Below, in pieces: positions 10,728 to 11,167 of a DNA stretch of 64,000 nt (position 1 is its first letter; every line of letters starts with the position of its first letter). Under the pieces are notes generated by a model. The model saw nothing but the letters and a program-made list of their open reading frames with translations, made no database searches and was not told where the DNA came from. Source of the DNA: Escherichia coli (GTDB taxonomy: Bacteria > Pseudomonadota > Gammaproteobacteria > Enterobacterales > Enterobacteriaceae); assembly GCF_036507355.1 (NCBI RefSeq), contig NZ_AP027877.1, one strand, 5' to 3'. The position numbers and the translations under genes were made by a program.

Positions 10728-11167
10728 TATGACGCTGCTTGTTTAAAGCTGACTGGTTTTATTGGAATAGTTCAATAGTCAACACCATGCATTATAACGT
10801 AAGTTACTTTTTACCAGAAAACTAATCCATTTAACCGAATATCTCGGCAACTAATAGTTATAAATGCCACTTAACAGCCAGTTATAGTACCACTTGAAAC
10901 TATATTACCAACAATAATTAATAGCTTTCTTAACAATTTTCTTATCTTTAATTTGTATTTTTCTAAGATTTATCTTATGCACACAAGTCGTATTTCAAGA
11001 GGGAAATCGTTAACAATCTTATATTTCCCTCTGAGCGCCTTTCTCACCCGCTGTATATAGTGCAAGTGGTATGAGGAAAGGGAGATTTCACAAGGATGTT
11101 ATACTCAAAGTAGACAATCCTGATCTCAAGCGTACGTATTGTCCATGCGATGAATAAAGGAAAAGTT

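Follow-up and report, generated by a model that had tools for sequence, protein, structure and literature searches.

The uninterrupted cspH-gfcA spacer of an Escherichia coli strain: a wild-type capsule-operon regulatory region with a candidate RcsB/YjjQ-type box, a predicted leader conserved across the genus and a short inverted repeat

In one 64-kb stretch of Escherichia coli DNA, to which we refer as the window, the region between cspH and the capsule operon gfc carries no insertion sequence and contains a perfect 10-bp inverted repeat. Does the absence of an insertion sequence set this strain apart and indicate that its capsule genes are expressed, and is the repeat an operator, an RNA structure, or a palindrome without a role? 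Based on genome comparisons and structure predictions, we find that the region is very probably the ordinary uninterrupted regulatory region of gfc, with its native promoter, operator and 5' leader; that is, the wild-type state of a locus that is already known.

The spacer runs for 440 bp on the + strand (10728-11167) from the stop codon of cspH (10515-10727, + strand; an ORF whose position and protein match the annotated cspH of TB06052, O157 and K-12) to the ATG of gfcA (11168-11170). It is AT-rich, with a G+C content of 33.8% versus 51.1% for the whole window. The list of open reading frames holds no transposase ORF in 10728-11167, and the spacer aligns with IS-free genomes end to end and in one piece; the first-pass annotation, which described the spacer as free of insertion sequences, was therefore right. 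It had also described all seven genes of gfcABCDE-etp-etk as intact, and this too is borne out. On the + strand we find gfcA (11168-11473; 101 aa and Thr-rich), followed by full-length gfcB (11580-12224), gfcC (12221-12967), gfcD (12967-15063), gfcE (15109-16248), etp (16236-16682) and etk (16702-18882). The gfcA-etk ORFs are as long as those that RefSeq gives for TB06052, the closest complete genome, and the 7.7-kb operon matches another E. coli in one piece at 99.6% identity (98.5-99.6% across ordinary E. coli). The gfcA start at 11168 is preceded by the Shine-Dalgarno sequence AAGGA (11157-11161); a second in-frame ATG at 11150, 18 nt upstream of 11168, has no Shine-Dalgarno sequence. Further downstream, the signal-peptide coding region of gfcA contains another perfect 10-nt inverted repeat, CGTTTGCTGC/GCAGCAAACG (11223-11232 and 11240-11249), with a 7-nt loop.

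The strain against which the window had been set is K-12, for which the first-pass annotation gave an IS1 upstream of gfcA (ymcD). The annotation of MG1655 and the sequences of the two junctions confirm this element: the MG1655 spacer carries IS1D, a 768-bp element located 24 nt before the gfcA ATG, with GTACGTATTGTC directly to its left and CGTATTGTCCATGCG directly to its right. On both sides of the element the spacer sequence is that of the window. What distinguishes the K-12 gfcA::IS1D allele is the element itself and a 9-bp duplication of its target CGTATTGTC (11135-11143), which we located from the K-12 junctions and annotation and which is single and intact in the window; the window represents the empty site. 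The K-12 lesion upstream of gfc is published and has been known since 2005 (PMC2516531; PMC12428005). Insertion sequences have entered the spacer repeatedly across E. coli strains. For instance, an IS3-family element interrupts the repeat's left arm in strain 33-6, strain 98202 has an IS1A in the spacer and has lost gfcA, and an IS5-family element is found near 11096 in GPT21-003 and in one metagenome contig.

We surveyed 5,426 complete E. coli genomes for the locus. The operon was found in 3,741 of them and the spacer in 3,717, with at least 80% of the spacer covered at one place in 3,481. In 403 genomes we find coverage of a query that spans the junction between the K-12 spacer and IS1, and in approximately 3,000 the spacer is uninterrupted. 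To be free of the element and to have all seven genes is therefore the norm: this state is shared by most E. coli and has been lost in K-12 and some other strains. The significance that had been implied for the missing element is thus not supported, as being free of it is simply wild type. The gfc (ymcDCBA-yccZ-etp-etk) promoter regions of EPEC, EHEC and S. sonnei (Peleg et al. 2005, as cited in PMC2516531 and PMC4368438) illustrate this, as they have the same locus, the same cspH-gfcA synteny and the same IS-free state as the window, with all seven genes intact and a spacer that is 94-96% identical to that of the window and fully identical over the last ~110 nt. The window differs from these strains in its rarer haplotype, in having a perfect instead of an imperfect inverted repeat, and in its candidate -10 element, which reads TATGCA and not TATGCT. 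Only one complete genome, that of TB06052 (from Galapagos fresh water), has a spacer that is at least 99% identical to that of the window (99.1%), and most genomes are 93-94% identical.

The first-pass annotation had further suggested that the strain may express the capsule export machinery, which is more than the absence of an insertion sequence can tell. EHEC has an intact region and nevertheless makes ~30-fold less gfcA mRNA than EPEC (PMC3853201). Because intact strains differ by this much and because the -10 candidate is changed in the window, we cannot infer from an IS-free spacer that the capsule is on. The O-antigen cluster, which is also required for capsule, lies outside the 64-kb window. 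As for the inverted repeat, we find no link between it and the 30-fold expression gap, as EPEC and EHEC carry the same repeat variant.

To describe the spacer itself we compared 69 related sequences, comprising complete genomes, a single E. albertii sequence, a single sequence from a cryptic Escherichia clade, and 61 metagenome contigs; some of the 69 could not be typed at every site. Alignments and per-column variability over 33 haplotypes define a block on the + strand (10888-11167) that is conserved across Escherichia, that is in E. coli, the cryptic clade and E. albertii. This promoter-proximal block of ~280 bp is kept across the genus; the other 160 bp, towards cspH, are not. Within the block, the ~110 nt that lead up to the gfcA ATG (11058-11167) show no difference among the genome-derived Escherichia sequences, that of E. 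albertii included, and are less variable than the remaining spacer; in the metagenome contigs, positions 11119-11160 are fixed by the search pattern.

Where in this block does transcription start? In published work, the whole spacer was used as the “gfcA promoter” in complementation of EPEC, with a primer (gfcA5) that corresponds to 10728-10751 (PMC3853201), and a g4c deletion in S. sonnei was complemented by a fragment “with its own promoter” that starts at 10877 (PMC4368438). The latter result places the promoter within 10877-11167. A consensus scan of the spacer for two-hexamer promoters and for terminators returned neither. Using a crude sigma-70 position weight matrix, we predict a candidate promoter on the + strand, P_A, that consists of the -35 element TTGTAT (10953-10958), a 17-nt spacer and a -10 element at 10976-10981, with a predicted start at ~10986-10988. 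By the same matrix P_A ranks first in the spacers of K-12, O157 and EPEC and third in E. albertii, where the equivalent of the -10 element is TATCCT. The sequence at 10976-10981 is TATGCT in K-12, O157, EPEC, EC42405 and the cryptic clade and TATGCA in the window and TB06052, and it is this replacement of the final T of the -10 element by A that takes P_A off the top list of the window. Given TATGCA, the lineage of the window may express gfc less, not more.

A second candidate is the extended -10-like sequence TGtTATACT (11097-11105, + strand), which has the best single -10 score in the spacer and would define an alternative promoter, P_C, with a predicted start at ~11112. This sequence is conserved in all sequences compared and lies inside the invariant leader. 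If P_C is the promoter, then the inverted repeat, being upstream of 11097, is not transcribed. The upstream region of the paralogous yjbE resembles the spacer only in the sequence TATACTC, which lies about equally far from the ATG, and in an RcsB-type site that is weak and of low affinity; a global alignment of the yjbE upstream region with the spacer was uninformative.

The P_A spacer is filled by a palindrome, TAAGATTTATCTTA (10964-10977, no strand assigned), that we consider a candidate RcsB/YjjQ-type operator and that is distinct from the repeat noted in the first-pass annotation. It fits the consensus of the RcsB box, TN(G/A)GAN4TC(T/C)NA (PMC7913699), exactly, as does no other site in the window, although the motif is loose and ~2 occurrences are expected per 64 kb. 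The reverse complement of TAAGATTTATCTTA matches the RcsAB box region of flhDC at 16 of 20 positions, among them AAATCTTAGA. The box is identical in K-12, O157, EPEC, E. albertii and the cryptic clade, and is present in 55 of the 67 related sequences with enough upstream flank. It lies 20 nt upstream of the inverted repeat, and its location between the two P_A hexamers gives it the geometry of a repressor site. Judging from these matches, TAAGATTTATCTTA would be a likelier operator than the inverted repeat, and we put it forward as a lead and not as proof.

The regulator YjjQ reportedly represses both flhDC and gfc, and its site at flhDC is said to overlap the RcsAB box (Wiebe et al. 2015). 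The gfc box has AAATCTTAGA in common with the RcsAB/YjjQ site of flhDC and would presumably be the footprint of YjjQ at gfc. A 2026 preprint describes yjjQ as a repressor of capsule genes, and full-text searches of the open literature returned no paper linking Rcs to gfc. Two further observations concern the box. A 23-bp deletion, seen in EC0026B and four metagenome contigs, removes most of the box together with the candidate -10 element (at ~1240 in our sequence L005, equivalent to ~10966-10988). In a gfc-like locus of Cedecea colo (our L011), a perfect RcsB-type box, TAGGATTTATCCTA (1607-1620), is located 462 nt upstream of the gfcA homologue, and an ops-like sequence, GCGGTAGCGCG (~1951-1962), lies closer to that gene; nothing like ops is present in the leader of E. 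coli.

A start near P_A would be followed by a 5' leader of ~180 nt. In this leader RNAalifold and pair counts over 14 haplotypes predict a hairpin on the + strand (11044-11075) with an inner stem formed by 11052-11056 and 11060-11064. The pair 11052/11064 is U-A, G-C or A-U across haplotypes and A.A in the K-12 type, and is the only pair of the leader that covaries. This covariation, counted in the very sequences from which the structure was derived, is suggestive of a stretch that is transcribed and folded, which would favour the upstream promoter. Rho keeps the operon low in K-12: in rho mutants of this strain the gfcA, gfcB and gfcC transcripts are up by ~2-4 (apparently log2 values) in a supplementary table, and the same Rho paper gives the length of the gfcA transcript as “830 nt”. 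Several purine- and pyrimidine-rich repeats of the leader could pair with one another in alternative ways, namely AGAGGGAAAU, AUUUCCCUCU, CCUUUCUC, GAGGAAAGGGAG and the Shine-Dalgarno segment AAAGGAAAAG. Based on these predictions one could imagine a structured, previously undescribed gfc leader, conserved across the genus and beginning with the inverted repeat as its 5' stem-loop, in which alternative pairing of the repeats would control Rho-dependent attenuation or translation of the export genes; as a whole, we regard this proposal as speculative and rather unlikely. A scan of 10300-11700 with the covariance models of Rfam 15 (E <= 10) found nothing in the spacer, and the ops/JUMPStart element GGCGGTAGnnTG is absent from 10728-11167 when up to 2 mismatches are allowed.

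We turn to the inverted repeat. Direct reading and a repeat finder agree that the left arm AGAGGGAAAT (10998-11007) and the right arm ATTTCCCTCT (11023-11032), both given for the + strand, are complementary at 10 of 10 positions and enclose a 15-nt loop, exactly as first reported. The perfect form occurs in the window, in TB06052, in four further E. coli-like sequences, in the cryptic clade and in E. albertii; the E. albertii loop is changed at 5 of 15 positions and its arms at 0 of 20. The dominant K-12-type haplotype has the left arm AGAGGGGGAT, in which two adjacent bases differ and symmetry is reduced to 8 of 10; it accounts for 46 of the 62 sequences typed by an anchor search, or 49 sequences when K-12-type rows missing the anchor are counted. 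In O157 and EPEC E2348/69 the left arm is AGAGGGGAAT (symmetry 9 of 10), and one divergent contig, L048, has AGAGGGAAAC. The right arm is nearly invariant, its only variant being ATTTCTCTCT in EC42405. Since the repeat is perfect in E. albertii, in the cryptic clade and in a minority of E. coli, this distribution indicates that the perfect form is the ancestral one and that it is being lost in most E. coli. The capsule-positive EPEC prototype, from which the capsule was defined, is among those with an imperfect copy.

Our tentative proposal is that the repeat forms the first stem-loop of the gfc leader, where it may protect the 5' end of the transcript or join the fold of the leader. The hairpin predicted for the + strand is stable (-13.1 kcal/mol; z = -2.7). 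Of the four substitutions seen in the arms, three (A11004G, A11005G and C11028U) convert a pair to G.U on the + strand and would be C.A mismatches on the other strand, and the fourth opens only the pair that closes the loop. In the predicted leader structure, this helix (helix 2) is paired in 99.3% of the cells, with A-U changed to G.U twice and G-C to G.U once, the consensus structure having been derived from the very sequences in which the pairs were counted. One-sided changes to G.U are expected about half the time for transitions, and there are no compensatory double changes inside the repeat among the haplotypes compared. Stem-loops that stabilize the 5' end are a feature of enterobacterial mRNAs, as in the ompA leader. 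If transcription starts at ~10986, the repeat would resemble them in placing a 10-bp stem ~12 nt from the 5' end. It differs from stem-loops of the ompA type in its large loop of 15 nt, and the start site used here is a predicted one.

It is also quite possible, if short of probable, that the repeat has no function of its own and is a chance palindrome that happens to lie among conserved regulatory sequence and that most E. coli are now losing. Perfect 10-nt repeats with loops of 3-30 nt arose in 104 of 5,000 dinucleotide shuffles of the 440-bp spacer (~2%), and ~2 such repeats per 64 kb are expected in the shuffled window, with 10 observed in the real one. The repeat is thus a mild local outlier, and alone it does not go beyond what a reading of the whole window would turn up. 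Within the conserved block its arms are no more conserved than their neighbours (10988-11047), and separate lineages have acquired changes at three positions of the left arm. The distant gfc-like loci of Cedecea and Citrobacter, whose upstream regions are not alignable with that of E. coli, have no counterpart of the repeat. What speaks against a palindrome without function is that the perfect form was kept across the split between E. coli and E. albertii while the loop diverged, and that three of the four arm substitutions retain pairing on the + strand.

That the repeat is a DNA operator strikes us as unlikely. Here a dimeric or tetrameric factor would bind both arms and repress or activate gfc, possibly together with the RcsB-type box. 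Such a role would fit the location of the repeat in the conserved promoter block, 20 nt from the RcsB-type palindrome, and the dyad that stays perfect in the window, E. albertii and the cryptic clade despite differences in the loop; a start near 11016 or 11112 would place the repeat in untranscribed promoter DNA. However, the dyad symmetry is down to 8 of 10 in the dominant E. coli haplotype and to 9 of 10 in O157 and in EPEC, which expresses capsule, and these natural G.U variants hint against a need for symmetry at the level of DNA. The arm centres are 25 bp apart and the invariant cores AGAGGG and CCCTCT 29 bp apart, or ~2.4-2.8 helical turns, which puts the half-sites on different faces of the helix. 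The box recurs in the regulatory region of flhDC, but without a comparable repeat, and we know of no E. coli factor whose motif is recognizable in the arms. The loop, judged by eye, bears a weak resemblance to the motifs of SlyA, OmpR, ArcA and H-NS. The first-pass annotation had called the repeat an “operator or RNA structure”; of this pair, the operator is disfavoured by imperfect symmetry, by arms that are out of helical phase and by the better candidate 20 nt upstream, and the RNA structure is a tentative reading that would fit the largely retained pairing on the + strand.

Finally, we consider a role of the repeat in intrinsic termination or attenuation, to prevent cspH read-through into gfc, very improbable, as its stable stem (-13.1 kcal/mol) does lie between two co-oriented genes but is followed by no T-run on either strand, has a 15-nt loop far above the size seen in intrinsic terminators, and coincides with no site in the terminator scan of the spacer. 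A small ORF that spans the repeat (ATG at 10977, 27 codons) was considered as a candidate and rejected: it has no Shine-Dalgarno sequence, and a TAG cuts it to 10 codons in K-12 and O157.

For this wild-type regulatory region we infer the following working from the promoter, box and leader. Transcription would most likely start near 10986 from the P_A hexamers, TTGTAT-17-TATGC(T/A), and a regulator of the LuxR/FixJ type bound to the palindrome at 10964-10977 would block RNA polymerase. Next would come the ~180-nt leader, whose conservation extends from E. coli as far as E. albertii. In this model the inverted repeat would not act as an operator; as the first stem-loop of the leader, it would occupy +12 to +46. 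In K-12, the IS1D inserted in the leader would cut the promoter off from the genes, which would then be held low by Rho.

As a discovery, the IS-free spacer carries little weight, as it is the wild-type state of a well-studied capsule operon. The cis-elements that it contains are poorly described in the open literature, and these are the candidate RcsB/YjjQ-type box, the conserved leader and the short inverted repeat, in which G.U pairs are tolerated. The capsule affects phage adsorption, complement resistance and the shielding of type III secretion.
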